64,000 nt of DNA from a phage, in the sequence record PZ445487.1. One strand, given 5' to 3'. Made by a program: the position numbers and the translations under genes. The notes beneath the pieces are model-generated. The model had not been told where the DNA came from. It did no database searches and was given only the letters and a program-made list of their open reading frames with translations. Each line of letters opens with the position of its first letter. Position 1 is the first letter of the stretch. This document shows, one piece after another, positions 2,977 to 60,159 of this stretch.

Positions 2977-3208
2977 TTATGCCTGTACAGGTTGTGGAAA
3001 TTCGTTTAGTGCTCGAAAATCTTGTGCTGAACGTCATACACCTGAATTAGAGCCATGTTCTGAATGTGGCGGTGAAATAAAAATGATTATTGGAGCACCA
3101 AAGATCGTATCTGGTGTTCGTGGTCCTCAGTCCGCGCCTGATGGCTTCAAAGACGTTTTGCGTCATATTAAGAAGCAATCAGGGAAGGGGAATACAATCG
3201 ATGTCTGA
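2963..3208 (+). CDS. FmdB-like zinc-ribbon protein
   Basis: MPFYDYACTGCG...CSECGG two CxxC pairs; GGAGG RBS upstream of internal ATG of track ORF 2867-3208. Confidence 0.45.
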   Translation: MPFYDYACTGCGNSFSARKSCAERHTPELEPCSECGGEIKMIIGAPKIVSGVRGPQSAPDGFKDVLRHIKKQSGKGNTIDV

Positions 3209-3443
3209 TCAACAAATAGCACAAGTGCTCACACCAGATTCTTTTTCCGAATTGGTGTTGATGAGAGCAAGCCAACGCAAGGAATCAATCCTTGAAACGA
3301 TGGCCAGTGTTTGTGAAGAGTATGACATCGAAGAAGCAAAGGTCAAAAAATTGATCACGCCTCCTCTTCTGTCAAGGCTAACAGCTGAATGTTCTGATGC
3401 TCGGTTGTTGAAGGGTGAATTGAAATCTAAAAAACTCATTTAA
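3201..3443 (+). CDS. hypothetical protein
   Basis: track ORF 3090-3443 trimmed to ATG (MSDQQIAQ) overlapping upstream stop ATGTCTGA. Confidence 0.4.
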   Translation: MSDQQIAQVLTPDSFSELVLMRASQRKESILETMASVCEEYDIEEAKVKKLITPPLLSRLTAECSDARLLKGELKSKKLI

Positions 3444-8869: not shown

Positions 8870-9532
8870 ATGTCTTATTCGCTCAAAGGGCTGTTGAAGC
8901 GCCCTGTGCATTTGTTTGTCAAACCACCTGCTGTAGAAAGGGAATATTCGGCACGAGGAGAGTTGTATTACATTAAAGGCTCCAATGGTAGTGGTAAGTC
9001 TACTGTGCCTTCTTATTTGGCGGAGAATGATCCTCAGGCGTATGTCGTAACCCACAACAGTAAGATCATGCTCACGGTTTGTCCATCTTATAATATTGTC
9101 TGTGTCGGTAAATATGACAAGTCTAAGTCCAAAGGGGTTGATTCTCTGAAGGATACTGAGCAGATGTTGTTCGCGTTGTCTATTGCTGACCAACCAGAAT
9201 ACCTGAAATATGATGTGATTTTCGAAGGCATCATTCCGTCTACATTATTGAGTTCTTGGATTCCCCGCCTGACACGCCCACCACGTGAATTGGTCGTCCT
9301 CTTTATGGATACCCCTCTTGAAACCTGTATTGCCCGTGTTAAATCGCGTAACGGTGGCGCAGACTTCAATGAAAGTCTGGTGGTCGAGAAGTGGGAGAGA
9401 GTTCATGATCACCGTCAACGGCATAAAGGCTTGTTCCCTACCGTTCCCGCAGGTATGATGAAGTCCGATGGCCTGACTGTAGAGCAGGCTGTTTTTGCGT
9501 TTCTCAATCGTGATTTTGGGAGTATTTATTGA
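8870..9532 (+). CDS. P-loop NTPase/kinase-like protein
   Basis: Walker A GSNGSGKST; start at ATG with GGAG RBS (aa5 of track ORF, whose first codon is TTG). Confidence 0.5.
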   Translation: MSYSLKGLLKRPVHLFVKPPAVEREYSARGELYYIKGSNGSGKSTVPSYLAENDPQAYVVTHNSKIMLTVCPSYNIVCVGKYDKSKSKGVDSLKDTEQMLFALSIADQPEYLKYDVIFEGIIPSTLLSSWIPRLTRPPRELVVLFMDTPLETCIARVKSRNGGADFNESLVVEKWERVHDHRQRHKGLFPTVPAGMMKSDGLTVEQAVFAFLNRDFGSIY

Positions 9533-10578
9533 TGGAAATCAAAGCAATTAACAACAACGACATGCTGAAACAGGCTGTCTTGGCTATCCGTGAGCACGGG
9601 ATTGAATCTGACCCTGGTAACGCGGAGATCAACACAGACGGCACTCGTTTTATTGATGGCGTGACGATCACCGTCTCTGACATCCGCGACCGTTGGCTGT
9701 CTGTTGAAGGACGCAACTCATCGGCTATTGCTGCCATCGGCGAGACCTTCTGGGTTCTGTCTGGGCGCGATGATGTGCGCTTCTTGTCCCGTGTCCTCCC
9801 TCGCGCCGCCAACTTCTCTGATAATGGCCATACATGGCGAGCCGCTTATGGTCCGCGTCTGTACGCCCATGGCCAGCTGGATAGCGTTATCAACCGCCTA
9901 CGCAAGAACCCAAATACTCGTCAAGCGTACCTCACCATCTATGATCCGGCTCTAGATTCGGATGCTGGTCTGGCGAAGTTCAGCGAGAGCGGCGAAGCAA
10001 AGACTAAGGACATGGTGTGTAACCTGGCTCTGTTGTTCGCCATCGTTGAAGGTCGTCTGAACCTGACGGTCATCAACCGCTCACAGGATGTTCTGTGGGG
10101 GATGAGTTCAATCAACTTCATTGAGTTCTCTATTCTTCAGGAAGTGATTGCTCAGGTGTTAGATGTTGATGTCGGTCAGTACAAGCTATTCTCTAACAAT
10201 CTTCATTACTACAACAATGAAGTCAGCCAGAAGCAGCTTGGCAAGATCACCAAAGACACAAAAGTCACTGGTGGTTTCATCAACTCCATGATCTACTTCA
10301 CGAACGTGACCAACCAGAACCATATCCGCAATCTGTTCACTGGTGTGCTTCATCACTGTGATATCGGCAGCCCGTGGGAAACTGTTGTCGCTCACCTGAA
10401 GGAGTACGGCGCGGATCGCGGCCTGATCGTGCAGATGGCGTACTGCCTGTACTGCAAACTGAACGACAAGCTCATCAACATGAACCTGATTCAGGATCAT
10501 GGTTTGAACATCGCGCTCGCCCATTCTCCGATTGACCGCAAGATCGTTGATCCCAAGTTCTTGGAAGGTGCAGTATGA
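9532..10578 (+). CDS. thymidylate synthase superfamily protein (candidate pyrimidine hydroxymethylase)
   Basis: MVCNLALLFAIVEGRLNLTVINRSQDVLWGMSSINFIEFSILQEVIA aligns to TS catalytic-Cys..QRS.D..LG.PFNI region; 348 aa, longer than TS or T4 gp42. Confidence 0.6.
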   Translation: MEIKAINNNDMLKQAVLAIREHGIESDPGNAEINTDGTRFIDGVTITVSDIRDRWLSVEGRNSSAIAAIGETFWVLSGRDDVRFLSRVLPRAANFSDNGHTWRAAYGPRLYAHGQLDSVINRLRKNPNTRQAYLTIYDPALDSDAGLAKFSESGEAKTKDMVCNLALLFAIVEGRLNLTVINRSQDVLWGMSSINFIEFSILQEVIAQVLDVDVGQYKLFSNNLHYYNNEVSQKQLGKITKDTKVTGGFINSMIYFTNVTNQNHIRNLFTGVLHHCDIGSPWETVVAHLKEYGADRGLIVQMAYCLYCKLNDKLINMNLIQDHGLNIALAHSPIDRKIVDPKFLEGAV

Positions 10579-11144
10579 TGTATCCGAACCTTGAATTCTT
10601 TACGGGGCGCAAGCGCTCCGGCAAGGACTTCTGTTTGGAGTCCCTCATCAGCTATCACCATTTACAGGGTGATATGGACATCCAGCGCTTATCTTTCTCA
10701 GACGAGTTGCGTCGGGTGGCTCATTACATCTATCCTTGGTTGCCAGAGGAAGTAGAGGACGATATCAAGGACTTGCCATATGTTCACCCAGATAACCCCA
10801 AGGGATTAACTCCAAGGCAGATCTGGCTTCATCTCGGCAGCGATACGGGGCTTCGTTATGTCCAACCGGATCTGTTTTTGTCTTTCTTTAAGCGTTACCA
10901 ACTCCCATTAGTTGAACAGAATCCTAACATTCATTATATTGTGAGTGATCTACGGACGCCTCAAGAATATGAATGGGCGCTGAGCACTAAATGTCCCATC
11001 ACCCGCATTTCAAAGGCAGATCGCGGCGGTATCATAGAGGACGACATAGAGGCTTTCATTGATGAGATGAAAGTTGATTATGAATTTGTTAACCCATTTG
11101 AAGGTTGGCAACCATTCGTCAAATTTTATAGGGAACGGAAATGA
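10575..11144 (+). CDS. deoxynucleoside monophosphate kinase (T4 gp1-like)
   Basis: FFTGRKRSGKDF matches T4 gp1 FLSGVKRSGKDT P-loop; size 189 aa. Confidence 0.65.
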   Translation: MMYPNLEFFTGRKRSGKDFCLESLISYHHLQGDMDIQRLSFSDELRRVAHYIYPWLPEEVEDDIKDLPYVHPDNPKGLTPRQIWLHLGSDTGLRYVQPDLFLSFFKRYQLPLVEQNPNIHYIVSDLRTPQEYEWALSTKCPITRISKADRGGIIEDDIEAFIDEMKVDYEFVNPFEGWQPFVKFYRERK

Positions 11145-11686
11145 TCACAGCAGAGCATATCAAAAGTCTGCTCGAACTTCAAAAGGCCACCAACGTGGCC
11201 TATTTTGGGGAAGAGTGGCGTAAACATTGGACTCATGTGGCGGTGGTGAACTCCATCTATCGTGAGTGGGCAGAGTTCCTTGACGAAGTTTCGACCAGTT
11301 GGAAAATCTACGGCAATGACCAGCAATGGCACCAAGTCAATGCGGTTTACGAATTGGTCGATGTCGTCCACTTCATGCTGTGTGCCGTTATACAAAAAGA
11401 AGCGGAGCCGCATGATATGTACGACATGACGGGTTATGTGTCTGATCAACCTATTCAGAGAAAGCCAGATTTCCTCCATGTGACAAATCTGTTTACGCAT
11501 TTTATGTCTCATCCAGAGCGCAATGTGCTGGCTGCTTTCCTTGCGTATGCTTGTGGTTATTTGGGACTGGATGCCGAAACCTACATGCTGGCGCACAAGC
11601 GCAAGAACGATCGCAATCGTCTACGTGCTGCTGGCGGTGCGAACTATGACAAGTCTGCCGAAACCCCTCTGACTCTGGAGTTCTAA
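11141..11686 (+). CDS. all-alpha NTP pyrophosphatase (MazG/dimeric dUTPase-dCTPase-like)
   Basis: EW..F..E and ELVDVVHF motifs typical of MazG-like/gp56-like pyrophosphatases; position after dNMP kinase. Confidence 0.45.
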   Translation: MITAEHIKSLLELQKATNVAYFGEEWRKHWTHVAVVNSIYREWAEFLDEVSTSWKIYGNDQQWHQVNAVYELVDVVHFMLCAVIQKEAEPHDMYDMTGYVSDQPIQRKPDFLHVTNLFTHFMSHPERNVLAAFLAYACGYLGLDAETYMLAHKRKNDRNRLRAAGGANYDKSAETPLTLEF

Positions 11687-17159: not shown

Positions 17160-17359
17160 TGAAACGGGAAATCTTGGATGTTTACTACCCTGGATCTTGT
17201 TGTCCAGGCCATGACAAGTACCCAGCGGACACATACAAAAATCGCCGCTCTAAATCAAAACGTTCAGACGGTATTAAAAAGGAGCATCGACATGTCCGCC
17301 GTGTCAAGCGCCAAAATCTGAAATCTGATTTGCTCTTCATTACCAAGGAGGATTTCTAA
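17159..17359 (+). CDS. small basic protein
   Basis: 66-aa ORF with AAGAGGAAA RBS. Confidence 0.35.
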   Translation: MKREILDVYYPGSCCPGHDKYPADTYKNRRSKSKRSDGIKKEHRHVRRVKRQNLKSDLLFITKEDF

Positions 17360-17571
17360 TGGAATGTTCATGCGGAGGGCAAGGCACAAGTGCATACTTG
17401 CCATTTAACACCGTGAAGGAAGCCGAAGAAGCCGGATATGCCGTGGATAAGGCTCCCTGTGTAATTGCCACCAAGGATTGTCCGTGCTGTAAGAGGCACT
17501 CTCAGGACGTGCATTACTCACCAAACGCACGTTCAGATAAAGTCAATCTTCTTTCACTGATGAGTAAATGA
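17359..17571 (+). CDS. small Cys-rich protein
   Basis: 70-aa ORF with CSCGG...CPCC cysteines. Confidence 0.35.
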   Translation: MECSCGGQGTSAYLPFNTVKEAEEAGYAVDKAPCVIATKDCPCCKRHSQDVHYSPNARSDKVNLLSLMSK

Positions 17572-46762: not shown

Positions 46763-46931
46763 GACATATCCTCATTTCTTTGGGGGTTTATTGTTACTTA
46801 AACGGATCACCTCTGCTCGAAGGAAGAGGATTTCATCGGCCATCATTTTACCTTCTTGAAACATAACATGACATCGTGATGATCTGGGTTCACCTTCCGA
46901 TAATGCGTAAAGGCGATATTCGGGGATGACA

Positions 46932-47138: not shown

Positions 47139-47577
47139 TTGTTTCTCCTTTTGCTGCATACGACAGAGCTTTTACGATCATAACAGCCAAACCGATAGGA
47201 TCGTATGCATTGTCGAATTCTTGTTCTATGTTCTGACGAATTTCATCAGAAGATTGTACTTCAGAGCAGTTCTTACTCTGTCTGCGTTGCTCTTGCTCGA
47301 CTAGATCTTTGAACAGAAGGTCTTTGAAAGAATACTCATCGAAGTTTTCAAGATACCGTTGGATGCTTGGTTGTTTTACATCCATCGTTTGACGCAAATT
47401 GCTAATAGTTGAACTTGCCTGTTCGCGGTGTTTGTTCATAACAGCAAAGTTAACGGGCTTGCCCCAAGCATTCATCACTGGATTAGAGCATACTTGGCCA
47501 AAGAGATCTTGGAAGGCATCATCCATGTGGATCAACGCAGTGGCCAATTCCTCATAAGTCGGTTTTTGAGTAGTCAT
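47131..47577 (-). CDS. hypothetical protein
   Basis: 148-aa ORF. Confidence 0.4.
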   Translation of the reverse strand: MTTQKPTYEELATALIHMDDAFQDLFGQVCSNPVMNAWGKPVNFAVMNKHREQASSTISNLRQTMDVKQPSIQRYLENFDEYSFKDLLFKDLVEQEQRRQSKNCSEVQSSDEIRQNIEQEFDNAYDPIGLAVMIVKALSYAAKGETNV

Positions 47578-47951
47578 TTTCGTTTACTCCGATTTTTATA
47601 TTTCTTAGCCTGACGTTTATGTTGGGCGGCTCCATATAGGCGCGGCGGCTTTTGATAACGTTGTGACGCAATTATGTCTCTGTCATCGGCTTCACAATAC
47701 GAAATATCTGCCTTCCGTAACTGAGCCACCGCTTGAGATACCAAGGTTTTGCGTTCACTTTCTACCAGATCATCACAAATTATCATGCGTTCACCTGGTT
47801 CACAACAACGTTTAGGAATATCGTCTACACTGATACATTCTACTTCAACACCTTTCAACTTTTCTTGAAGGATAATGGCCATAGTCCGAGCGCCGATTCC
47901 TCCTCCAATAATCGCTATCTTTCTTGTCTTGTCTGTCATGTTCTTGCCCAT
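47574..47951 (-). CDS. hypothetical protein with Rossmann-like GGGIG motif
   Basis: KIAIIGGGIGA dinucleotide-binding-like motif; track start 47969 is TTG inside a hairpin, ATG at 47951 or 47939 more likely. Confidence 0.4.
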   Translation of the reverse strand: MGKNMTDKTRKIAIIGGGIGARTMAIILQEKLKGVEVECISVDDIPKRCCEPGERMIICDDLVESERKTLVSQAVAQLRKADISYCEADDRDIIASQRYQKPPRLYGAAQHKRQAKKYKNRSKRK

Positions 47952-47956
47952 GAAAA

Positions 47957-47994
47957 GGGGATAGAGCAATAATACCCTATCCCCATTTATTGAA
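47957..47994 (-). promoter_or_regulatory. composite terminator/promoter element (TTCAAT N14 TATTAT in hairpin loop, T-run)
   Basis: minus orientation TTCTTCAATAAATGGGGATAGGGTATTATTGCTCTATCCCCTTTTC; approximate. Confidence 0.5.
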
Positions 47995-48000
47995 GAACTA

Positions 48001-48492
48001 TTAGTCTTCCGAACCTACAACCCCACCACGCAGATCCTGTGCTGGCTTACCATCAGGTGCCATGACATAGATGGTATTGATAGTCTCAAACCAAGACAAT
48101 AAATCAACTCCTTCGGTGTATGGCGTTACCGGAACAGAAGTTTTGATTTCTTTCTGTTCATCCTTCAAATCCGGATGACTTCCCGATAGGGTTAACCAAG
48201 CGAATCTTCCATTGGGATAAATAATGCCTTCTTTGAACATTACAATCTTTTTGCGAGGATTATTGGCTTCACCCAGGCACACCACCAGATGATGGATCAT
48301 TTCGGGGCGCGTCAACAACGTGTCATCTTTGATAATGCCCTGCTTGACAGCAGAGATTACCACTTCATCCAGCAACGCCTGTTGCTGTTCCAGCGTCAGA
48401 GATTCGGTTAGTTTCACGCTCATAAGATCAGCCTTTGAAGTTAATCGGAGTCTGGACACCAGAGTCAAATGCGGCCTGGGTGCGGGTGTCAC
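48001..48492 (-). CDS. hypothetical protein
   Basis: 163-aa ORF. Confidence 0.4.
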   Translation of the reverse strand: MTPAPRPHLTLVSRLRLTSKADLMSVKLTESLTLEQQQALLDEVVISAVKQGIIKDDTLLTRPEMIHHLVVCLGEANNPRKKIVMFKEGIIYPNGRFAWLTLSGSHPDLKDEQKEIKTSVPVTPYTEGVDLLSWFETINTIYVMAPDGKPAQDLRGGVVGSED

Positions 48493-48997
48493 TCACCACC
48501 TGACATGTCTTGTCAAGATCGATACGCGGATATCCAAAGATTCCTGCTATCAGAGAACCAGGGAACTGGCCAAGTTTAGTTTCATAGATCGCACATGCGT
48601 CCAATTTTTTAGTTTGGCTAATGCGGAATTCATCCCGACCTGAGCTGATAACAACCTGAATCTCTTTGTACAAAGATGAATCAAACTGAATATTCTGTTC
48701 CTGAATCCATTGCATTACTGCTTTAGAACCGTCTGCGCCATAACGGCCTTGGAAAGTATCTTTGATCACTTCCTTCAAACCGTTTTTGTACATGTCAGGA
48801 ATCTGCGCCGTCTCCTGAACTTTGAGCGTGTAGTTGCTCAGGTGGTTTTCAGAATCTTTGTTGAACTTTTTGACCTGTTGTTCAATGCGGTTGAAGTCAT
48901 TGAAATAGCTAACCACACTGCCAATCCCAATTACAGCAAATGCTAGAATCGCCAACCCAACAATCCAACCAATTGAAATACCTTTACGTTGTGACAT
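48428..48997 (-). CDS. LemA-family membrane protein
   Basis: N-terminal TM helix; C-terminal LGQFPGSLIAGIFGYP matches LemA VxKFPGxLIA motif. Confidence 0.5.
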   Translation of the reverse strand: MSQRKGISIGWIVGLAILAFAVIGIGSVVSYFNDFNRIEQQVKKFNKDSENHLSNYTLKVQETAQIPDMYKNGLKEVIKDTFQGRYGADGSKAVMQWIQEQNIQFDSSLYKEIQVVISSGRDEFRISQTKKLDACAIYETKLGQFPGSLIAGIFGYPRIDLDKTCQVVSDTRTQAAFDSGVQTPINFKG

Positions 48998-49012
48998 CTT
49001 TACTTCCTCTTG

Positions 49013-50122
49013 TTAAAACAAACGTTTATAAGTTCGACCATTGTACTGCATGCGGCCTAATATGAAAACTGCGGTAAAAGGGATACATCCAAACAGCACG
49101 ACGATAATCACTTCCCAAGTTTTAAGATCTCGCCATTTCAGATATTCCATTTCCTTCATCTCAACTCGGTTGTATCCCTTACTGATATTGACCGCAACTT
49201 CTTGGAACACGGATATGCCCATTGGTTTCCCAGTCAATGAAAGTCCGTTACGAGAATGGAGTTCCATGTTGTTCATGCCGTCGGCAAATGACGTAGACTT
49301 ACCCCAATTAATTTTCATATCCTTTGAAATATCGGTGACTACAATAACATCGTTCTTTTTACCGCCAGACCATGCATATAGAAGTCCCTGAAAATATTCA
49401 ACAGGCTGGCCAGAAGTCACAACCCAAACGATATTAACCTGACGTGAAGCACCTAATGTTTTCAGAGTATTGTTCAGATAATCATTCCAGTAATCAACAG
49501 GAATGTCCATCCCTGACATATTCAGAACACGAGTTACTCGGTAATAATCATACACCCTCGGATATGAAGGGATATGCTCTTTGAACTTCTCGGCGAATTT
49601 CTGGTCAGATTTAGAGAATAATGAATCTTTGTTGCCCAGCACATAATTCATATATGAATGTTCACGTGCCGCAGGTTCCCCGATTTTAACTTGTGCCCAA
49701 CGCGGAGGCTCTGTAGTACCCTGACGATCAATACGGTCAATGCTCAGATCACCGACGGTTGTTAATACGTCCCAATCAACGTCATAAGAGTGCTCATAGC
49801 ATGTGCTGCAATGACGCGTTTGTGTACAAGATCGGTTATTTCCTGAACCTGTACAAGATGTTGTGTAATAACACATACATTCATAAGAATGTTCACAACC
49901 CACCTTATTCCGTTGCTTATCAGTTACATATCCATTCAGGATTTCCACGTCCCCAGAACTACCAAGGGAGAAAGCAGCATATAATCCCGACTGGATAAGG
50001 CAAGACAATACGATAACAATGGCCGTGGCGATCAAAGTCTCCTTTGGCTCATGAGTCTTGCGGTGATATATCACAAACAAGATGGCCAAAATTACAGGAA
50101 CCACAAACAGAAGGTAAATCAT
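49013..50122 (-). CDS. Cys-rich membrane protein (TM helices at both ends)
   Basis: 369 aa; N- and C-terminal hydrophobic helices; cysteine-rich segment CEHSYECMCYYTTSCTGSGNNRSCTQTRHCSTC. Confidence 0.5.
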   Translation of the reverse strand: MIYLLFVVPVILAILFVIYHRKTHEPKETLIATAIVIVLSCLIQSGLYAAFSLGSSGDVEILNGYVTDKQRNKVGCEHSYECMCYYTTSCTGSGNNRSCTQTRHCSTCYEHSYDVDWDVLTTVGDLSIDRIDRQGTTEPPRWAQVKIGEPAAREHSYMNYVLGNKDSLFSKSDQKFAEKFKEHIPSYPRVYDYYRVTRVLNMSGMDIPVDYWNDYLNNTLKTLGASRQVNIVWVVTSGQPVEYFQGLLYAWSGGKKNDVIVVTDISKDMKINWGKSTSFADGMNNMELHSRNGLSLTGKPMGISVFQEVAVNISKGYNRVEMKEMEYLKWRDLKTWEVIIVVLFGCIPFTAVFILGRMQYNGRTYKRLF

Positions 50123-50505
50123 AACACACCATCCACGAGTTGTTCCTTCGTCATACCAAGAAGTTGATTTTTATGCTCAGATTTAGCCCCATTTTTCAAC
50201 AACAGATCCCAACGTTCTTCATGATACTGTGGAGTCATTGCATCGTCAAAAGAAACATGGTGGAGATGCATAATTGTTGCAACGGTATGAAGAACGATTG
50301 CTGTTTCTCTTTTTAAAGCACGTGTATCCGTGATATGGTCTTCATATTCGATTCCCATCAAATCGAGTTCTTTTCGGATATATGCTATAGACAAATCACC
50401 TTCAGAATGCAATTTAACAATAGTCGCTTTCTTAGGATGTAACACGCCGTCTGTTTCTTTCATGAACAGATCGTACAGGTACTGTTTGTATTCGGACTGT
50501 GTCAT
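50119..50505 (-). CDS. hypothetical protein
   Basis: 128-aa ORF. Confidence 0.4.
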   Translation of the reverse strand: MTQSEYKQYLYDLFMKETDGVLHPKKATIVKLHSEGDLSIAYIRKELDLMGIEYEDHITDTRALKRETAIVLHTVATIMHLHHVSFDDAMTPQYHEERWDLLLKNGAKSEHKNQLLGMTKEQLVDGVL

Positions 50506-50714
50506 TTAGATTCTCCCATGACGATAACAGGAGCGCCATTACGGAAACAACTATATTCTGCAGGAAGACCTTCGCGAACCTTCTGGGCGAACGCTTCAGA
50601 AACAACCAAACGACCAACCAGAGGTTCTTTTTGTTTTGGGGTGGACTCAAAGTAATCACCAAAAGTCGCTTCCATATCGAGCACAGACATGTCTTCAATT
50701 CGTTGCATTGCCAT
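50502..50714 (-). CDS. hypothetical protein
   Basis: 70-aa ORF. Confidence 0.3.
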   Translation of the reverse strand: MAMQRIEDMSVLDMEATFGDYFESTPKQKEPLVGRLVVSEAFAQKVREGLPAEYSCFRNGAPVIVMGESK

Positions 50715-50725
50715 GATATAGGACC

Positions 50726-50917
50726 TCAGTATAATTTCGTATAAACTTGTTTAACGCCAATATCGGCAGGAGCTGTGCTCTGCTGCATATTATAGAATGC
50801 CAAATCTGCTTGTTCTTTGTTTTCAAAATCAACTACAACTGTGTGTACTGATATTGCTTCACCCTGTCCATAAGCATAACAACGGCTGGTGACCAATATT
50901 TTGTATTGAGGTGTCAT
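50726..50917 (-). CDS. hypothetical protein
   Basis: 63-aa ORF with AAGGA RBS. Confidence 0.4.
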   Translation of the reverse strand: MTPQYKILVTSRCYAYGQGEAISVHTVVVDFENKEQADLAFYNMQQSTAPADIGVKQVYTKLY

Positions 50918-50941
50918 AAAATCAATCCTTGCAAAAAGAAA

Positions 50942-50980
50942 GGGGAACGGGCTAATAATAACCCATTCCCCTTTATTGAA
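50942..50980 (-). promoter_or_regulatory. composite terminator/promoter element (TTCAAT N14 TATTAT in hairpin loop, T-run)
   Basis: minus orientation TTCTTCAATAAAGGGGAATGGGTTATTATTAGCCCGTTCCCCTTTCTTT; approximate. Confidence 0.5.
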
Positions 50981-51000
50981 GAACGCAATCGCAATCAGAT

Positions 51001-51167
51001 TACTTTTTCTTCAGCTCGTCCAGTTTGGCTTCGATTTGTTCCAGGATGTCTTTACCCTTCTGAACAATCACTTCACCGTCTTGCGCGTGTTTGCGAAAGA
51101 CCAGAGCGCCAGCGATGAAGCCGACAACCACACCAGGAAGCGCATAAACCAACAGATCTTGTAACAT
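51001..51167 (-). CDS. small membrane protein (55 aa, below ORF-track cutoff)
   Basis: MLQDLLVYALPGVVVGFIAGALVFRKHAQDGEVIVQKGKDILEQIEAKLDELKKK; GAGGA RBS; coordinates +/-2. Confidence 0.35.
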
Positions 51168-51202
51168 GATAATATCCTCACTTTATAGCGAGGATATTTA
51201 TA

Positions 51203-52444
51203 TCAGCGTTTCAAGAGTGTCATGAGGTTCACACTTTTAGAAGGATACACAGTACCATTTCGGCTCATGGTGTCCAATTTACCAACTGACAAACAAACCT
51301 CAGACGGTTCCCAACGTGTACCCTGCTGTAAATGCCAGATATGTAGAGGAACACCCGTCTCAAAGAACACGGGCATCTTCCACTTCTGGACGCCTGGAAC
51401 GTGCCCTGCAGGAGCCTTCTCACATAACAGGGTATCTGGTAGCCAGAGTGAACGGGCTTCCCAGAGAGGTGCACAGGAGTATTCAGGCCAAATACGTTCC
51501 ATATAATCGATCTCGTCCCATGTACGCTCGGCGTCCCACCCGATGTAACGGGTATTCTTCAGTCGGAAGAATTTCTTCAACCAACAAGCACCGGAGGTCT
51601 CAAAGTTCAGACGATTGATAAACGTGATGTGGCCAAACTCTTCAACGCATTCCTGAAACGCTTTCTCAAGGTCGGTTTCGAGTATATCACATTCTTCGTC
51701 TGTAATAGGACAACCGTTAATCTTTTTCTTCCCGTGCTTGGTCACCCAATCATCACGGTTGGATAAGAATGCCGCGCCGTTACGATTGGATTCGCTACCA
51801 TCACGGTCACGCAACATGAAACCAGGGACGTCTATATCCCATATGTTACCGAAGACCATGTTCAGGGCTTCCAGGAAGTTCCATGCGCTCAGGCGACCGA
51901 AGTATTTCCATGACATCGCCGTATTCCACAGTTCGGTGAATTGGTCTTCCTTGGTAGTGCATTCCAACATCCAACGAAAAGAATCCATTTGGGTTTTACC
52001 ACCCAACCAATCGATATAGGACTGAACGCACGGAATCATCTTCGACTTACGATAACGACAATCTGTATCGAAGCGCATACGATCAAAGTTCAGGTTATAC
52101 CAATCAGAAAATCGCTGAAACTCTTTCGGAGATTGTGGGGGTACAGGAAATTCACTGTAAATTGTCCATGGTCCAATCCCATTATAGCAACAACCCCACA
52201 AAAAGGCCATCCAAATCTTGCGCTCGATCTTCTCGAGCTGTGTGATGCCTTCTGTAACCTCGATGGCATAATCCATCAGACGGACTTGCTGGTTATGCTC
52301 TTCAGTGTAGGATAGCGCCTCCACCCATGCCTTGAGCAGGTACATGCGATTTTCTGGCTTACGATAATCTACTGCCAGATCAATCGGGTATTTCCATTTT
52401 TCAGGGGCTTTATATCCCTGCGGCATTTTAGAAATGTGTATCAT
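51203..52444 (-). CDS. hypothetical protein (candidate DNA base-modification enzyme by context)
   Basis: 413-aa Trp/Cys-rich protein with no recognised family, directly upstream of P-loop kinase and nucleotidase genes. Confidence 0.5.
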   Translation of the reverse strand: MIHISKMPQGYKAPEKWKYPIDLAVDYRKPENRMYLLKAWVEALSYTEEHNQQVRLMDYAIEVTEGITQLEKIERKIWMAFLWGCCYNGIGPWTIYSEFPVPPQSPKEFQRFSDWYNLNFDRMRFDTDCRYRKSKMIPCVQSYIDWLGGKTQMDSFRWMLECTTKEDQFTELWNTAMSWKYFGRLSAWNFLEALNMVFGNIWDIDVPGFMLRDRDGSESNRNGAAFLSNRDDWVTKHGKKKINGCPITDEECDILETDLEKAFQECVEEFGHITFINRLNFETSGACWLKKFFRLKNTRYIGWDAERTWDEIDYMERIWPEYSCAPLWEARSLWLPDTLLCEKAPAGHVPGVQKWKMPVFFETGVPLHIWHLQQGTRWEPSEVCLSVGKLDTMSRNGTVYPSKSVNLMTLLKR

Positions 52445-52626
52445 CCGATTTTACTCCCGAGTTCAACACGGAACGCCAGATAGAAGAAAGTGGCGATCGA
52501 TACTGGACAGATCACCAAGAATGGGCGCTGTTGCACCCCTTCTGTGACCATGACGCCGACCAGCGAAACCGTAAAGATAACGAACATCAGCATCATGAAG
52601 ATAAAATCAACATGCTTGATTTTCAT
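52441..52626 (-). CDS. small membrane protein
   Basis: 61-aa hydrophobic ORF. Confidence 0.3.
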   Translation of the reverse strand: MKIKHVDFIFMMLMFVIFTVSLVGVMVTEGVQQRPFLVICPVSIATFFYLAFRVELGSKIG

Positions 52627-52993
52627 CTTTCACTTCCTCTACAGGAGAAACAACTTCAGGCTCAGCTTCGGGAGCCAGCTGAATTTCTTCGGGGCTTACT
52701 ACGGGCTGTCCCAGAGACCAGATAGGCAGGAAACGACGATCATTCGTCACCAACCAAATTTGCTTGGCGGTTTTCGTCTTTTCGGAAATAAAATGCTGGG
52801 CATTGACCTGGGTACGAGCCAAACCCACCTGACGCCAAGAACCGAAATCCTTAGAAGAAGGATTGGTATTCAGTTGAAATTGTGGGACGATTTTATTCTG
52901 TTCCGGATAATAACGGACAGCGTTAATCATCTTCGCATCACCACGGTAATCAATAGCAACAGCGACAACGTTGCGTGGAATGAGGATTTTCAT
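52607..52993 (-). CDS. hypothetical protein
   Basis: 128-aa ORF. Confidence 0.4.
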   Translation of the reverse strand: MKILIPRNVVAVAIDYRGDAKMINAVRYYPEQNKIVPQFQLNTNPSSKDFGSWRQVGLARTQVNAQHFISEKTKTAKQIWLVTNDRRFLPIWSLGQPVVSPEEIQLAPEAEPEVVSPVEEVKDENQAC

Positions 52994-52994
52994 T

Positions 52995-53198
52995 TTAATT
53001 CCTTTTGAAACTCTGAATTATGTTATAGACGAAAGGCGTTAATAAGATAGCACCCCCCAAATAATATAACGCGTAAACGTTCAATATTTCGGTTGAATCC
53101 AACTCAACGATGCCCAAATATTTCATGACACCGACAAGCACAGCTGTGATACACATCACCAATCCGACGAACACAAAATATTTAGACATCTGTTTCAT
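52995..53198 (-). CDS. small membrane protein (2 TM)
   Basis: 67-aa hydrophobic ORF. Confidence 0.35.
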   Translation of the reverse strand: MKQMSKYFVFVGLVMCITAVLVGVMKYLGIVELDSTEILNVYALYYLGGAILLTPFVYNIIQSFKRN

Positions 53199-53200
53199 TT

Positions 53201-54106
53201 CTAACCCTTACTCAACAGGCCGAGAAGGGATACAGAGGACTTTGTTACCTCTCCCTTGGCGCTCGCCTTGGTTTTAGATTTGGTCGCCTTCTCAGGGACT
53301 CGATGCGCTAGAGGATCATCCCCACCGACTTCACGCGTCATTGGGTCAGTTTCACAGAATCCGTAGAAATCTTTGATGTCCAGACCCATGGCGTGAAACT
53401 CACCACGCATTTGATGATGAATAGCGTTGCCAATCACCCATAAAGGTGCATCAAACGGCATCATGGCTAATTCGCTATCATTTCCTGTTTTGAATTCTTG
53501 AGTGTTTGTAGGCGATTGACGGTACAACACGTCTTGCCCGCTGTAGTCATTGACCACCACTTCCCAACCCAGCACCAGCATTTCAGTCTTCGACTTCTCA
53601 AACTCCTTGGAGTAAGATTCGTTGCGTGACCAGCCGGAGTCCCCTGCTTCCTTACCAGAGCGACCACGGATGCGTGCATCATACTGATAGCGGTCTGGGT
53701 ATGCAAAATAAAGCAACGCCAGAGATTCAATCGGATAGTTCTTGAACATCCATTCAGGACGCCATTTATCCGATAGCATGAGGGGTTCACCCTCGCACAC
53801 CAAAGTGTAACCCTGAGCCAGCCAGCCTTTGACCAGATCACGGGCGATATCACCCGAGCCTGTGGCGGCGTGGATGGCGTCCATGGAAGTCCAGGAAGCC
53901 AGGCCGGATTTGTTGGACACAGTATACTGGCCAACGAAGATTAACTTCAGCTCTTCGAACTTCAGGCCGAATGGGCGCGTCTTGTCACCAATGGTGTAGG
54001 TGAGTTCAGTAGGCTCCAGCTTAGTTCGGAGCCATTCGATGAACTGGACTACTCTCGTACCCTTGCCCGTGGCCGAGGTGCCTTTCACTACAATTATTTT
54101 AGCCAT
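53201..54106 (-). CDS. P-loop kinase-like protein
   Basis: N-terminal IIVVKGTSATGKGT Walker A-like loop; 301 aa. Confidence 0.45.
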   Translation of the reverse strand: MAKIIVVKGTSATGKGTRVVQFIEWLRTKLEPTELTYTIGDKTRPFGLKFEELKLIFVGQYTVSNKSGLASWTSMDAIHAATGSGDIARDLVKGWLAQGYTLVCEGEPLMLSDKWRPEWMFKNYPIESLALLYFAYPDRYQYDARIRGRSGKEAGDSGWSRNESYSKEFEKSKTEMLVLGWEVVVNDYSGQDVLYRQSPTNTQEFKTGNDSELAMMPFDAPLWVIGNAIHHQMRGEFHAMGLDIKDFYGFCETDPMTREVGGDDPLAHRVPEKATKSKTKASAKGEVTKSSVSLLGLLSKG

Positions 54107-54447
54107 TATGCATCTTCCTCAATACGCCAGCTCACACCGCCCAACCAGGGAGACCAGAAAACAGCAACCTGTGGACGTTCGTTTTCTACAAACTTCACTT
54201 TATACTGGTCTTCAAAGTTATAGAAAATTTCATCGTCATCTGGTGCCATACCGTTTTCTATCAGAACACGCTTTAACTCCAGCGCCGCACCAACGGAAGT
54301 GGGTGTGGTTTGTTTACGAATGAAGTTGTTCACATGGATAATAACGCCATCCATATCGCTATCACCGGAACGCTTGTCTGGGGTTTCCCCAAACTTAGAT
54401 TGTTCTTGCACGATGTCCTCCTCAACGGACGTATTGATAATGGCCAA
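54106..54447 (-). CDS. hypothetical protein
   Basis: 113-aa ORF. Confidence 0.4.
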   Translation of the reverse strand: MAIINTSVEEDIVQEQSKFGETPDKRSGDSDMDGVIIHVNNFIRKQTTPTSVGAALELKRVLIENGMAPDDDEIFYNFEDQYKVKFVENERPQVAVFWSPWLGGVSWRIEEDA

Positions 54448-55204
54448 TCAGGCGATTCACCACTTCGACAATATTACGGTTCAGGAAGTCGAAGTGGTTC
54501 TGGCCTTCTACTGGTTTAATATAAAGCATATCTTCCGAGTTCGAAAGATCCAGTTTTTCATAATTTCCCTGAGGAACAAAGATGACAAAAATATTGTTCA
54601 TCGCACAGGGTTCAACGTATTTCGGGTTATCATCAATTAAAACATCACCTGCCAAAAGATGCTTTTCGTCGGTGCTGACAAACCCGTTGAAGATGCCAGG
54701 GAACTTGTCATAGACAAACTGGCGCTTGCTGCGCTCGTGTTCTGGCTCACACTTAGATACTGCGATCAATTCAACATTTTCAAAGTCTTCGAGTAGGATC
54801 TTCTTCAGATTCACCAGGAACTCGTAAGCGCCTGGAAGCGGGTTCATCTTGGCATACAGGTCCGGCATGCGCCACCAATCCATAGGATCACGTCCTGTAG
54901 GTGAATCCATCCATTGACCAGCAACAAACACACGGCGTGTCAACCATGCTGGGTGAGCGCGTTCCCGCATGAGGATCGCCAGATCACCAGCATGAGCCAT
55001 ATAGCACTCTTTGGTGATTGGTTGAAATTCAGATGGGTAGTCGTGACAACCCATGTTTTCCGCAGCAGCTTTTGAATTGGAAATATTAAACCAATCCACC
55101 CAAGGGGAGAGGCTATCAACCAAAGTCAAGTCTACGTCTACCAGGATACGATACATTCCACCGATTTTAGAATTGGCATCATACAGACCAACATGATTAT
55201 TCAT
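54422..55204 (-). CDS. HAD-superfamily 5-prime-deoxynucleotidase-like (NT5C-like) protein
   Basis: HAD motif I ILVDVDLTLVD and C-terminal GDVLIDDNP motif; start set to ATG with GGAGAAG RBS. Confidence 0.5.
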   Translation of the reverse strand: MNNHVGLYDANSKIGGMYRILVDVDLTLVDSLSPWVDWFNISNSKAAAENMGCHDYPSEFQPITKECYMAHAGDLAILMRERAHPAWLTRRVFVAGQWMDSPTGRDPMDWWRMPDLYAKMNPLPGAYEFLVNLKKILLEDFENVELIAVSKCEPEHERSKRQFVYDKFPGIFNGFVSTDEKHLLAGDVLIDDNPKYVEPCAMNNIFVIFVPQGNYEKLDLSNSEDMLYIKPVEGQNHFDFLNRNIVEVVNRLIGHYQYVR

Positions 55205-55541
55205 CAGACTTCTCCACTTGATCATAACCAGTTGCGGTGCATTGCTCTTCTGTGCAATCTGCATACAGAACCACAGAAGATTCCTTCACGTAAGTGGTGC
55301 AGTGATAGGTTTCATCTTCCTGGATGGAATCATCATAATTGCAAACAGTTTGCAACGGACCAGGAGTGGTGTTGTCCAAAGCTGCATGTGCCTTGATGGT
55401 GTCTTCCATCTTATTCACCGCTTGCTGATTGGTGAACGTCGGCGCATCGAGGTCAACAGTAGACGCAACGTCCAGAAGGGTAGAGCATGCAGTGGTAGAG
55501 AAAGCCAGAGCACACACCAGAAGAATCTTATTGAGTTTCAT
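55197..55541 (-). CDS. putative lipoprotein
   Basis: MKLNKILLVCALAFSTTACS signal peptide with lipobox-like cysteine. Confidence 0.45.
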   Translation of the reverse strand: MKLNKILLVCALAFSTTACSTLLDVASTVDLDAPTFTNQQAVNKMEDTIKAHAALDNTTPGPLQTVCNYDDSIQEDETYHCTTYVKESSVVLYADCTEEQCTATGYDQVEKSDE

Positions 55542-55601
55542 AACAATACCTGTTGTCAAAGGGATAACAGGGGGAATTATATCCCCCTTTGGTTTATTGA
55601 A

Positions 55602-58598
55602 TCAACCTTTCTTGCCCATCATGGACAACAGATTAACTCGACGTTTATGAGACCAACCAACCACATCCAAGATAGACTGAATTGGCTCTATAAAGGTCTT
55701 TTCAAACGTGGTGTGGTAATCCACCCATTTATCCAATCCCAATTCTGGAGGAAGGAAGTCAGGGAAGGCTATGCGATCATTCCCCACAGGATTGCCAGGT
55801 TTCAGGTTGATGATTTTAACCTTATCACCGGATTCGATAGGCGGAAGACCGAGATCTTCGTGCTTATCGATCAGCTTGTTGTACATAATACAAGCCTTGG
55901 CAGCAAAGTGCGTACCGCTGATGTAATTCCCGTTCGCGTCTAACCACTTCTCAATATCGCTCACACCAGATGCCTGAGCGATATCATCCACGGTGAGTTC
56001 CATATATTCCTTTTTGTATCCAGCGATTAATTCCTGAACCTCCGCCTCAGTACCGAGCAGGACTTTCTCATAACATTTGACAAGACGCTCACGACACCAT
56101 TCCGGCGTTGTAGATTTACGCGCTTCCAGACCTTTGAATTTGATCTTTGGTTTCTCATACTTGATGCCTTCGCTATCGTATACTGCCATGCAATACATCT
56201 TCTTGGCTCGCCATACAGCAGACGATGCGATGACCTCACGTTCCCAGACCATGCGCTGCTCAAACCCGTTCATGGTATTACACAGCAATTGCGCCCATTC
56301 ACTAGTTTTTGGTTGGTAATTCTCTTTGATCCATTGGTCGATGTTATCAACAAGTTTATGATGATCCTTTTCATCAGGCCATAATTGCTTGACCAGGCGT
56401 TCAATGCAAATATAATTGGAGTCTGTATCACCTGCGATAACAAAATCCTGACCAGTAGTACCACAAAGTTTGTTCAGATAATCATCAGTGTGGCGTTTGT
56501 TCCATTTATTGATCAGCTGGCCGGAAGTGGTAATTGCTTCAGCGATGTTGATGTTGAAGTATTCTTTAAACCAGACGTTAGAAATTGCACCATATCCTGC
56601 GTTCATCAAGATCTTCAGACCTTGTTGTAACGTATCTTGGGCAACTCCCAAATCTTCCCACTTGTGCATGACTTCGGTCAGGTGATCAAGGTCGATATGC
56701 TTGTGTTCTTCATACCATTCAGGATCGTAGAAACGAGACTTCATGGCGGATTCAAGGTGGAAATCACCTTTAGACATTTCCTTACACCAACCAGCCCATT
56801 GCTCATACTTCAGGCCAGTTGCTTTCTCTCCTTTACGGTCAGCGTATATGCCTCGCATAATTTCGGAAAGGAAGGACATCTTCTCATTACTGAAGAACTG
56901 AACGTTCGGGGTAAAAGAAACGTTATAACGGCGTAACGTTTCAAAATGGAATTCACCCAGCGCGACCAATTCATCAACAACTTGTATGCGTTCATCAATA
57001 GCACGCTGCAGCTTGTCGTGAAGATTTTTGAGATGACGGCGCTTGTTCATAGGCGTTGTCATATCATTCATCGCTTTGGTCAATTCTTCACACATGGACT
57101 CAATGATATCGCGACGTGTGTGCTTGTCAGAAACGATAGTCTCAGGACCAAGGTTGTATTGCTGTATGATGTGGGGATACAGGGAGTTTAAGTCCTCAGA
57201 GAATACCCAGAAATATATCCCTGGTGCAACCTCCATGACATATGCGCCTTCAAAGTCCGTTGGACCATCATATACACGCTGTATTTTAGGGACAATCCCC
57301 TTTTCATAAAGACGATAGTAACACATCGCCAGCCATGGTGCTACAGTCCCAAGACCGTCTTCATAGTTAGATTTGGTGCGATACGCCAATACGAACATCA
57401 GCTGTATCAAACGCAGCTTTTGTTCTAAACGCCACACGAGTTTGACGTCTTTGATACCATATCGGGTGTGTTTGCAATAATCATTAAAATATAGATCATA
57501 CAATGACTTGCTTTCACTATAATCCAACTTCTTCTCACCGAGTTCACAATAAGCGATCCAATCCAGTGAGTATTTTTCGCGGGTCGTGTACGTGTGTTTC
57601 TTGTAAACTTGCATGTAGTCCATCATAGGACAACCGACGAATTGATAAGAAGTCACGTCGCCTTTACGGTCTTTGATGAAACGTTTCTTGAGTTTGCTCC
57701 AAGGACTGAGACGCTCTGCCTGAGTTTCACCGAGAACCTGCGTAATACGTTCAACCAAGTACGGGCTATCAAACGTTTCGATGTTCCAGCCAGTCCAACC
57801 ATCAAATTGACGTTCAGACCAATAATCTAAGAAAGCGCGAAGAAGTTCTTGTTCAGTAGTGTATTCTTTGTATTCAACCTCAAGACCACCTATCTCTTCA
57901 TCATTTGGATCATATTTGAATTTATGGCGATCCTTAGAGCACGGCATACCCCAGACATAGAACTTGTTGGTGTTCATGTCTTGAAGCTGGATGAGCGTAA
58001 TAGGGAAGGCGGCATTCATGTTCTGTGTGATCTTCCCATTACTATCAATGATAGGGAACTGGTCAGTCACGTTGTTGGAAATAAAGGAACCTGGGAAATG
58101 CTCTCGAACGAAATCATGGTTGGCCAACACTTGCTTATGAAATCGGCGAACACGCGCCTCGCTCCCCTTAAACGTGTGGGATTCAATCGTCGCGTGAGGA
58201 AATGGACCTTTAGTCATTTCTCCATCGCGCCACCCAGCCGAGAAAACTTCGATATCCACGTTGGCGATGTGAATATTTGAGTAATCGGGGGTAATCATCC
58301 CAGGAAAACTATGCGCTATGAATTGATATGCATAATCCGTTTGCCCGTAAACGGCAGCGCCTTCGACCTCCTTATATTCCTCCAGATAGTTGTCGGCGTC
58401 ACGCATTGACGCAAATTTTTTAGACACCAACGGTTCATTGAGGAGGCCAATCTTTTCAACTTTGGAATAATCGGCTGTGGGTAAATACAAGGTGGGTTCG
58501 AATTTCTTACGCAACATACGGCGATTGCCGTTGTCGTCTGCAATACGAATCAGAAGGTCGTTACCCTGTCGGGCAACGTTCGTATAGAAAACAGTCAT
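55602..58598 (-). CDS. 43: B-family DNA polymerase (T4 gp43-like)
   Basis: N-terminus MTVFYTNVARQGNDLLIR parallels T4 gp43; exo motif VDIEVF, pol motifs DLNSLYPHII and IAGDTDSNY; start trimmed to ATG with GGAG RBS. Confidence 0.9.
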   Translation of the reverse strand: MTVFYTNVARQGNDLLIRIADDNGNRRMLRKKFEPTLYLPTADYSKVEKIGLLNEPLVSKKFASMRDADNYLEEYKEVEGAAVYGQTDYAYQFIAHSFPGMITPDYSNIHIANVDIEVFSAGWRDGEMTKGPFPHATIESHTFKGSEARVRRFHKQVLANHDFVREHFPGSFISNNVTDQFPIIDSNGKITQNMNAAFPITLIQLQDMNTNKFYVWGMPCSKDRHKFKYDPNDEEIGGLEVEYKEYTTEQELLRAFLDYWSERQFDGWTGWNIETFDSPYLVERITQVLGETQAERLSPWSKLKKRFIKDRKGDVTSYQFVGCPMMDYMQVYKKHTYTTREKYSLDWIAYCELGEKKLDYSESKSLYDLYFNDYCKHTRYGIKDVKLVWRLEQKLRLIQLMFVLAYRTKSNYEDGLGTVAPWLAMCYYRLYEKGIVPKIQRVYDGPTDFEGAYVMEVAPGIYFWVFSEDLNSLYPHIIQQYNLGPETIVSDKHTRRDIIESMCEELTKAMNDMTTPMNKRRHLKNLHDKLQRAIDERIQVVDELVALGEFHFETLRRYNVSFTPNVQFFSNEKMSFLSEIMRGIYADRKGEKATGLKYEQWAGWCKEMSKGDFHLESAMKSRFYDPEWYEEHKHIDLDHLTEVMHKWEDLGVAQDTLQQGLKILMNAGYGAISNVWFKEYFNINIAEAITTSGQLINKWNKRHTDDYLNKLCGTTGQDFVIAGDTDSNYICIERLVKQLWPDEKDHHKLVDNIDQWIKENYQPKTSEWAQLLCNTMNGFEQRMVWEREVIASSAVWRAKKMYCMAVYDSEGIKYEKPKIKFKGLEARKSTTPEWCRERLVKCYEKVLLGTEAEVQELIAGYKKEYMELTVDDIAQASGVSDIEKWLDANGNYISGTHFAAKACIMYNKLIDKHEDLGLPPIESGDKVKIINLKPGNPVGNDRIAFPDFLPPELGLDKWVDYHTTFEKTFIEPIQSILDVVGWSHKRRVNLLSMMGKKG

Positions 58599-58677
58599 TG
58601 TTTGTCTCCGGTTAACCGTGCCGTTAGCACGTCCCCGTAATTTAGCCGAGGAACGTTCAATGACCAAGGAGTTTATT

Positions 58678-59250
58678 ATGGCAATCCCCTTTGTGAGTAT
58701 GATCCCAGGGGCGCTCAAGCAACTCTGGAACCTCGGGACTGATTTGATCCAATACAAGCGGGAAGTTGTTCAGGCCAAACACGATGTCAAGCTAGAGGCT
58801 ATCAAGTCCTCCTCAGATTGGGAGCTGTCTAAGATCACCGAAGTCGGCGGGTCTTGGAAAGACGAATTCTGGACTATCGTGTTAGCTGTTCCCGCTATCC
58901 TCGTCATGACTGCTCCGGTTGTGGAACTAATTCTGTTCCCTGATGAGTATCATAAAGGGGATTTCATCAAAGCAGTAATCGACGGCCTCCAGGCGCTCGA
59001 TACCGCACCTGAATGGTATACCTATTCGTTATTGACAGCAATTAGTGCATCATTCGGTATCAAGGGGTATAACCATTACAAAAGCAACAGCCGGAAGGCG
59101 CAAGCTGTGGATGCTCTCAAGCAGTTTGGGGTCAAAGTGGTTAACAAAGATCCCACTGTTGTTACTCAGTCGGGTTCTCCCGATCTTGAGTCTGCTCCCC
59201 CAGCTGGGTCTACTGCGACCTCTGGTGCGTGGCCTGATCTGAAGAAATAA
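58678..59250 (+). CDS. hypothetical membrane-associated protein
   Basis: AAGGAG RBS before ATG (MAIPFVSMIPG); one TM helix; diverges from polymerase gene. Confidence 0.45.
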   Translation: MAIPFVSMIPGALKQLWNLGTDLIQYKREVVQAKHDVKLEAIKSSSDWELSKITEVGGSWKDEFWTIVLAVPAILVMTAPVVELILFPDEYHKGDFIKAVIDGLQALDTAPEWYTYSLLTAISASFGIKGYNHYKSNSRKAQAVDALKQFGVKVVNKDPTVVTQSGSPDLESAPPAGSTATSGAWPDLKK

Positions 59251-59253
59251 GTT

Positions 59254-59280
59254 AGAGGGGAGGAAACTCCCCTTTCTTTT
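59254..59280 (+). terminator. putative rho-independent terminator
   Basis: GAGGGGAGGAAACTCCCCTTTCTTTT; approximate. Confidence 0.5.
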
Positions 59281-59291
59281 GGTGTTAAGGA

Positions 59292-60157: not shown

Positions 60158-60159
60158 TT

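Follow-up and report, generated by a model that had tools for sequence, protein, structure and literature searches.

The synthesis of the hypermodified nucleoside 5-(2-aminoethoxy)methyl-2'-deoxyuridine (5-NeOmdU), which carries a restriction-resistant base, has been described for Salmonella phage ViI, with gp67, gp243, gp247, gp226 and gp160 as the published genes (Lee et al. 2018 PNAS, 2021 NAR). ViI gp67 and gp243 phosphorylate 5-hydroxymethyl-2'-deoxyuridine (5-hmdU) in DNA with ADP as by-product, and purified gp247 transfers free L-serine onto the monophosphorylated base (5-PmdU) via a covalent Cys intermediate, yielding O-serinyl-thymidine, which the pyridoxal phosphate (PLP) enzyme gp226 decarboxylates to 5-NeOmdU (PMC8989533). 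The same study states that phage CBA120 "natively synthesizes 5-NeOmdU", and according to liquid chromatography-mass spectrometry, CBA120 virion DNA carries the 301-Da nucleoside 5-(2-aminoethoxy)methyl-dU at about 40% of T (2018 paper, PMC5889632). Here we analysed a 64,000-nucleotide stretch of phage DNA (sequence record PZ445487.1; the whole stretch is called the window in the following), in which positions 51203-55204, downstream of a DNA polymerase gene, had been predicted from the sequence to encode a post-replicative DNA modification module. With a probability of roughly 0.93, this region is part of the published 5-NeOmdU pathway of the ViI-like Ackermannviridae phages. In addition, several enzymes of the pathway share a short peptide with the polymerase, and this peptide is probably a sliding-clamp-binding motif.

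The window is Escherichia phage CBA120 (NC_016570; Kuttervirus, Ackermannviridae), with 100% identity over a 4,062-nt region and over the first 20 kb. The region is present in 275 further phage records, mostly from Ackermannviridae of Salmonella, Klebsiella, Escherichia and Dickeya. This system has been described before, and in CBA120 itself. The three genes on which the original prediction was built were found at the coordinates it had given, on the minus strand and 3' of the polymerase; they are listed here together with the polymerase and the other pathway genes of the window.

55602..58598, minus strand: orf237 of CBA120, family-B (T4-type) DNA polymerase (Pfam DNA_pol_B_exo1/DNA_pol_B, phrog_262, annotation)
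54422..55204, minus strand: orf240, NT5C-like HAD phosphatase, 260 aa (Pfam NT5C, 32.7 bits)
53201..54106, minus strand: orf243, predicted 5-hmdU DNA kinase 2 (Pfam HMUD2), 301 aa
51203..52444, minus strand: orf248, predicted amino acid:DNA transferase (ADDT/AADT; Pfam ADDT), 413 aa
62278..63471, minus strand: orf228, predicted PLP-dependent decarboxylase (O-serinyl-T to 5-NeOmdU), 94% identical to ViI gp226
8870..9532, plus strand: orf074, predicted 5-hmdU DNA kinase 1 (Pfam HMUDK_HMUD1, E=5.2e-113), 94% identical to ViI gp67
9532..10578, plus strand: orf073, thymidylate-synthase homolog (Pfam Thymidylat_synt, E=4.3e-16)

The polymerase is counted from its annotated ATG; the mechanical open reading frame (ORF), starting at a TTG, reaches 58757. 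The start/end junction of the linear CBA120 GenBank record is crossed at window positions 46301/46302: window 1-46301 is the reverse complement of record positions 46301-1, and window 46302-64000 that of record positions 157304-139606.

Applied to CBA120, the pathway would start with the thymidylate-synthase homolog (9532-10578), which is predicted to make 5-hmdUMP. Its role as dUMP hydroxymethyltransferase is predicted from the family match and from what the papers state about such homologs; 5-HMUDK is reported there to co-occur with a dU hydroxymethyltransferase. The phage polymerase (55602-58598) would put the 5-hmdU into DNA, using 5-hmdUTP, and the P-loop kinases, kinase 2 and kinase 1, would phosphorylate the 5-hydroxymethyl group in the DNA with the gamma-phosphate taken from ATP, giving 5-PmdU. 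Cys287 of the transferase, aided by Glu282, would attack C6 and the phosphate would leave, which would yield an exocyclic methylene. Free L-serine would add to it through its side-chain hydroxyl, forming O-serinyl-thymidine. Decarboxylation by the PLP enzyme (62278-63471) would yield 5-NeOmdU. Kinase 2, transferase, decarboxylase and kinase 1 are 86, 86, 94 and 94% identical to ViI gp243, gp247, gp226 and gp67, respectively, and the genes downstream of the polymerase follow one another in the same order in both phages. The same Pfam families and the same end product are found in CBA120 and ViI, and the sequences differ only at the strain level, for example by indels in the linkers preceding the C-terminal tails. 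From orthology and conserved residues we infer the activities of both kinases, transferase and decarboxylase in CBA120; the decarboxylase matches Pfam PALP with 31.4 bits, below the cut-off. The fifth published gene, the HMUDK_hel paralog of the ViI gp160 type, corresponds to CBA120 orf156 and is located outside the window.

The 301-aa protein matches Pfam HMUD2 (PF18747, "5-hmdU DNA kinase 2") in full length, with residues 1-300 of 301 covering profile positions 1-298 of 298 (E=1.8e-149, 497.3 bits, cut-off 25), and is 86% identical over its full length to ViI gp243 (YP_004327565), which is encoded at the same genomic position. Its Walker A motif, G9-TSAT-G14-K15-G-T, is kept in ViI and in Vibrio phage D504. 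The P-loop kinase of the original prediction was confirmed by this profile search, and its similarity is to the 5-hmdU DNA kinase family rather than to polynucleotide kinases or unrelated NTPases. The RefSeq name "guanylate kinase" and the phrog_4409 label would fit a guanylate or other nucleotide kinase, or a polynucleotide kinase, next to a 413-aa protein without a role in DNA modification. Such an arrangement is extremely improbable, given the full-length HMUD2 match, the lack of any other kinase family at E<=0.1 in Pfam or <=0.01 in NCBIfam, the activity of ViI gp243 on 5-hmdU within DNA (PMC8989533), and the catalytic Cys and Glu kept in the 413-aa protein, an ADDT. In Klebsiella phage KpS110 (L019 6325-7914) and Dickeya phage Ds3CZ (L020 6166-7761), kinase 2 is annotated as a single protein of 529-531 aa with about 230 extra N-terminal residues, for KpS110 under the label "endonuclease" (phrog_15209). 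This N-terminal extension might stem from a gene fusion or from the insertion of a homing endonuclease. A separate gene for a homing endonuclease lies directly upstream of kinase 2 in D504.

The 413-aa protein, which contains 22 Trp (5.3%) and 12 Cys (2.9%), had been regarded as novel and as fitting no family. Neither description holds. Residues 49-292 match positions 2-228 of the 232 positions of Pfam ADDT (PF18724, "amino acid:DNA transferase"; E=1.9e-57, 195.1 bits, cut-off 26.2), the family formerly named aGPT-Pplase clade 2; the family has been named and assayed, and the DNA modification of CBA120 has been measured. The expected likeness to a DNA-modifying enzyme was thus found, and the same model is matched by the assayed enzymes ViI gp247, M6 gp51 and PaMx11 gp46. 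Since orf248 is 86% identical to the serine:DNA transferase ViI gp247 (YP_004327568) and 5-NeOmdU is published for CBA120 DNA, we infer serine as the donor, with an O-linkage. In an L-INS-i alignment of seven sequences, including Vibrio, Mycobacterium and Caulobacter phage homologs, the catalytic candidates E282, C287 and D213 align with E243, C247 and D175 of PaMx11 gp46; E282 and C287 are located within NFETSGAC. Cys247 is the proposed nucleophile attacking C6 in the PaMx11 gp46 structure paper (PMC11472151), and Cys-to-Ala and Glu-to-Ala mutants of ViI gp247 are inactive (PMC8989533); both residues were shown to be essential in ViI gp247 and M6 gp51. C341, suggested as catalytic Cys by a four-sequence MAFFT alignment, was a mis-pairing, and C287 took its place once intermediate homologs were added.

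The glycine:DNA transferases (PUGT) M6 gp51 and PaMx11 gp46 share with orf248 the membership in Pfam ADDT, the catalytic Cys and a Glu close to it; the Asp in the FM(F/L)(K/R)D motif is also aligned between them. They differ in the nucleophile, which would be the side-chain OH of serine forming a C-O bond in CBA120 and is glycine's alpha-amine in the Pseudomonas enzymes. In addition, orf248 is longer by about 120 aa C-terminally and about 45 aa N-terminally and, unlike the Pseudomonas enzymes, ends in a polymerase-type tail. The pair of a 5-hmdU kinase and an alpha-glutamyl/putrescinyl-thymine pyrophosphorylase (aGPT-Pplase) put forward by the original prediction stands with respect to both family memberships, but not with respect to the pyrophosphorylase chemistry, which is replaced by serine transfer to a monophosphate. 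A route in which the kinase makes a pyrophosphoryl ester (5-PPmdU) that is used by the large protein as an alpha-glutamyl/putrescinyl-thymine pyrophosphorylase corresponds to the first computational prediction in the literature and to the classical PhiW-14/SP10 model (PMC8989533 introduction), and the 413-aa protein has a weak secondary match to aGPT-Pplase3 (E=0.013, below cut-off). This route is very unlikely, because the kinases produced a monophosphate (418 u) and ADP in vitro and purified gp247 worked with 5-PmdU and free serine (PMC8989533). The family has since been renamed AADT.

Some observations weigh against the assignment to the 5-NeOmdU pathway. The activities ascribed to the CBA120 enzymes are carried over from assays of their ViI orthologs. 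Pairwise BLASTP of orf248 against M6 gp51 and against PaMx11 gp46 was not significant, and phmmer of the 413-aa protein against PDB sequences gave nothing usable, as was also the case for the 301-aa protein. It is thus through the shared Pfam profile and a single multiple alignment that orf248 is linked to a solved structure. Furthermore, CBA120 has two kinases and, with the HMUDK_hel paralog, a second glycosylase-fold protein.

The third protein, orf240, is 260 aa long from its annotated ATG; an ATG farther upstream, at 55264, would extend it to 280 aa. It had been described as an NT5C-like HAD nucleotidase, and this description is borne out by a Pfam NT5C match above the cut-off (E=8.5e-8, 32.7 bits, cut-off 24.8), which is partial (profile positions 56-146 of 180), and by intact catalytic motifs: motif I, D23-V-D25-L-T27, and motif IV, D191-D192, align with PDB 3bwv and 4mwo. 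The cytosolic and mitochondrial 5'(3')-deoxyribonucleotidases of the NT5C type (PDB 3bwv, 1mh9, 4mwo) have the same DxDxT and DD motifs; unlike them, orf240 has about 80 inserted residues that separate motif I from the matched core, and it reaches only E=0.011 against the solved chains. The protein is 88% identical to ViI orf00239 and 27% identical to the syntenic gene of Vibrio phage D504. It lacks the polymerase-type tail, and most likely it is a nucleotide-pool phosphatase rather than a DNA-acting enzyme.

Whether orf240 is a working part of the module is a different question. It might for instance be a dTMP/dUMP 5'-nucleotidase that excludes thymine, so that all T would start as 5-hmdU, which would make it a candidate for the thymine-exclusion step. 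We regard this as a tentative idea with less than even odds. It would agree with the intact HAD motifs and with the 5'(3')-deoxyribonucleotidases as closest solved relatives, and also with homologs that are almost confined to this phage group. According to the papers, virion DNA is without 5-hmdU, which is converted to T or to the hypermodified base. The position between polymerase and kinase 2 is kept in ViI, Erwinia phage phiEa2809 and D504, down to 27% identity; this synteny carries little weight since the whole genomes are collinear. On the other hand, orf240 is not among the genes reported to be unique to hypermodifying phages, its counterpart was dispensable in the published reconstitutions with lysates and purified enzymes (PMC8989533), and the M6 and PaMx11 clusters showed no homolog. 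A literature search for Ackermannviridae together with deoxyribonucleotidase gave nothing relevant.

A short peptide resembling the C-terminus of the polymerase is common to both kinases, the transferase, the HMUDK_hel paralog and the PLP decarboxylase. In the enteric Ackermannviridae it follows the pattern [ST]-V-[NS]-L-[LM]-x-[LM]-[LM], written [ST]-V-[NS]-L-x-x-[LM]-[LM] for the CBA120 proteins taken together.

DNA polymerase, C-terminus, 55617-55637, minus strand: …RRVNLLSMMGKKG (tail …HKRRVNLLSMMGKKG)
Kinase 2, C-terminus, 53213-53236, minus strand: …SSVSLLGLLSKG
Transferase, C-terminus, 51212-51235, minus strand: …KSVNLMTLLKR (tail …SKSVNLMTLLKR)
HMUDK_hel paralog (orf156, outside the window), C-terminus: …RSINLLEKMKK
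Kinase 1, N-terminus, 8873-8896, plus strand: MSYSLKGLLKRP…
PLP decarboxylase, internal loop, 62590-62613, minus strand: …KSVSLAGLLSGIRPK… (internal peptide …SKSVSLAGLLSGIRPK…)
Tail-peptide set, candidate clamp binders: HKRRVNLLSMMGKKG, TKSSVSLLGLLSKG, PSKSVNLMTLLKR, PVRSINLLEKMKK, MSYSLKGLLKRP
17359..17571, plus strand: orf058, 70-aa Cys-rich protein with two CxxC-like pairs, ending in …DKVNLLSLMSK
3201..3443, plus strand: orf084, gp33-like late-transcription co-activator, 36% identical to its D504 homolog

When only the polymerase core RVNLLSMMG was used as query against the last 16 residues of 853 CBA120 ORFs of at least 60 aa, orf058 was the best non-self match (score 31), and the paralog, the transferase and kinase 2 scored 18, 18 and 16, respectively. 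The Cys-rich orf058 may be a small zinc-ribbon client of the same partner. The peptide is kept across five Ackermannviridae genera, and the Lys/Ala/Pro-rich linkers preceding it vary and contain indels, a pattern expected of a short linear motif. A strict regular expression for the CBA120 tails (4 matches versus 0.45 expected from shuffles) was discarded as a test because it was derived from its own matches and is circular; the scans with the polymerase tail only are the valid test. The C-terminal part of orf227 (63541-63990, minus strand), which is cut by the window end and located directly upstream of the PLP decarboxylase, has no Pfam match and ends in …KSFFRRLLDFLTK, a hydrophobic tail that may likewise serve for docking.

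Different versions of the peptide are found in other phages. The transferase of Vibrio phage D504 is 50% identical to that of CBA120, and the D504 polymerase ends in …KKARKLW. A scan of 733 D504 ORFs with the last seven residues of the polymerase returned five best non-self matches with scores of 18-28, with noise at 13 or below: the transferase (…KTRKLW), kinase 2 (…KTKKLW), the HMUDK_hel paralog (…TKRLW), a Cys-rich protein of 99 aa (…KTKRLW) and the gp33-like co-activator (…KTRKLF). The D504 version is K-x-[KR]-[KR]-L-W, in short …[KR][KR]LW. The 99-aa protein is encoded upstream of the ligase, in a position similar to that of orf058, and tblastn detected no homology between the two. The D504 PLP decarboxylase contains …KTRRLF… in the loop where CBA120 has …SVSLAGLL…. 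A third version, GLGxFF, is present in Delftia phage PhiW-14, which is unrelated and whose hypermodified base is putrescinyl-thymine. There, the polymerase ends in …AKLGAFFV, the 5-HMUDK gp37 in …HGLGGFFKG and the putrescine:DNA transferase gp109 in …TGLGSFFR. An exonuclease and an NrdA.1-like protein also have this version, and gp33, gp55 and gp72 have it in a looser form, with …SLGGFAAT and …SIARFMV as late-transcription factor tails. No such tails were seen on the enzymes of the Pseudomonas phages M6 and PaMx11.

In T4, gp43, gp33 and gp55 end in closely similar motifs that bind the clamp and can replace one another (PMC2988020). The simplest reading of our peptides is that they are the clamp-binding motifs of the respective lineages. 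The presence of the peptide on gp33-like late-transcription factors of D504 and PhiW-14 may likewise point to tethering by the sliding clamp. Judged from the sequences, it is rather likely that the DNA-acting hypermodification enzymes of phages with a T4-type replisome are sliding-clamp clients, each carrying the clamp-binding peptide of its lineage's polymerase. Clamps left on newly replicated DNA would recruit the modification enzymes as a "tool-belt", and this recruitment would explain the older observation that DNA is modified at the time of replication or right after it. The peptide is absent from nucleotide-pool enzymes, the HAD nucleotidase among them. The clamp gene of CBA120 is orf163, located outside the window.

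The peptide might also be shared by chance, bind another common partner such as a single-stranded DNA-binding protein or the helicase loader, or act as localisation or degradation signal. We consider this possible, with a likelihood well below one half, and several observations speak for it and against clamp tethering. The separation from noise in CBA120 is imperfect, since three unrelated tails score 16-19 and are interleaved with the true matches of 16-31. The tail of the CBA120 gp33-like protein, …ARLLKGELKSKKLI (…KSKKLI), resembles that of the polymerase only loosely. In Aeromonas phage TSW001, the tails of polymerase (…VNVLKFFKQKEA) and transferase (…TKKLW) belong to different classes; its kinase 2 tail was left out, as the gene is split by the junction of the record and seemed duplicated after joining. 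Furthermore, a claimed interaction between the T4 alpha-glucosyltransferase and gp45 was not reproduced. What argues for clamp tethering is the D504 scan, in which the five best of all ORFs are these proteins and are separated from the noise, the same pattern with a different motif in PhiW-14, the interchangeable motifs of T4 and the conservation of the motif across genera despite varying linkers. A clamp is mentioned in neither hypermodification paper (PMC8989533, PMC5889632), and our literature search, which covered open-access articles, found no report of such a peptide or of clamp tethering; it may have been described elsewhere.

The genes downstream of the polymerase are plausibly a single co-directional array, since adjacent genes abut or overlap (1-20 nt) and the last small ORF is followed by a terminator-like hairpin. 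Five small ORFs that were absent from the original prediction are interleaved among the genes of the polymerase, the HAD protein, kinase 2 and the transferase. None of the sequences of transferase, kinase 2, HAD protein, DUF7254 protein and decarboxylase matched an NCBIfam model. The remaining features of the array and the nucleotide-pool genes adjoining the hydroxymethylase are as follows.

55197..55541, minus strand: orf238, DUF7292 lipoprotein-like protein (Pfam DUF7292, E=2.9e-53)
54106..54411, minus strand: orf242, DUF7254 (Pfam DUF7254, E=2.3e-49)
52995-53198, minus strand: orf244, 67 aa, membrane-like
52607-52993, minus strand: orf245, 128 aa (phrog_4163)
52441-52626, minus strand: orf247 of CBA120, 61 aa, membrane
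51000-51167, minus strand: orf249, small ORF, the last before the hairpin
50974-50939, minus strand: terminator-like hairpin with a 16-bp stem and T-run, likely the array end
10575..11686, plus strand: orf072, P-loop dNMP-kinase-like, and orf070, dUTPase_2/NTP pyrophosphohydrolase; nucleotide-pool enzymes adjoining the hydroxymethylase

The polymerase stop and orf238 are 60 nt apart, and this gap contains a G/C-rich palindromic hairpin, AGGGGGAATTATATCCCCCT, at 55569-55588, which overlaps a minus-strand match to sigma-70-like -10/-35 elements (55605-55576). In the nucleotide-metabolism block, dUTPase_2 is adjoined by orf069 (11686-12216, plus strand), with a full-length match to the Pfam "phage ACT-like domain" (E=3.6e-86), which may be a small-molecule-sensing regulator. 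Directly 3' of the PLP decarboxylase, a 149-aa ORF (61789-62238, minus strand) matches ART-PolyVal (E=2.2e-10), the ADP-ribosyltransferase of polyvalent proteins, and DUF3990.

The gene cluster described here re-identifies a published pathway in a phage with measured DNA chemistry and adds nothing new by itself, and the functional inference made from the sequence alone was sound. RefSeq names in this system are misleading: besides the name given to kinase 2, "terminase small subunit" is used for kinase 1 and its homologs in ViI, M6, PaMx11 and PhiW-14, and the transferase, the paralog and the decarboxylase are "hypothetical". The one feature that is apparently unreported is the shared end-peptide. 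If clamp tethering is true, the peptide would be a physical mechanism that couples DNA hypermodification to the replication fork, and more DNA-acting enzymes of such phages could be found with it as a simple sequence tag.

A parallel to clamp-coupled modification would then exist in eukaryotes with DNMT1 and PCNA. The closest comparison is with the clamp motifs of T4 gp43, gp33 and gp55, which like the peptides found here are short and hydrophobic, form the very C-terminal end behind a variable linker and occur on the polymerase as well as on other, in our case putative, clamp clients. They differ in charge, since the T4 motifs are hydrophobic and acidic whereas the peptides of CBA120, D504 and PhiW-14 are hydrophobic and basic. 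Unlike the T4 motifs, the peptides described here are also present on DNA base-modifying enzymes, once at the N-terminus and once in an internal loop.

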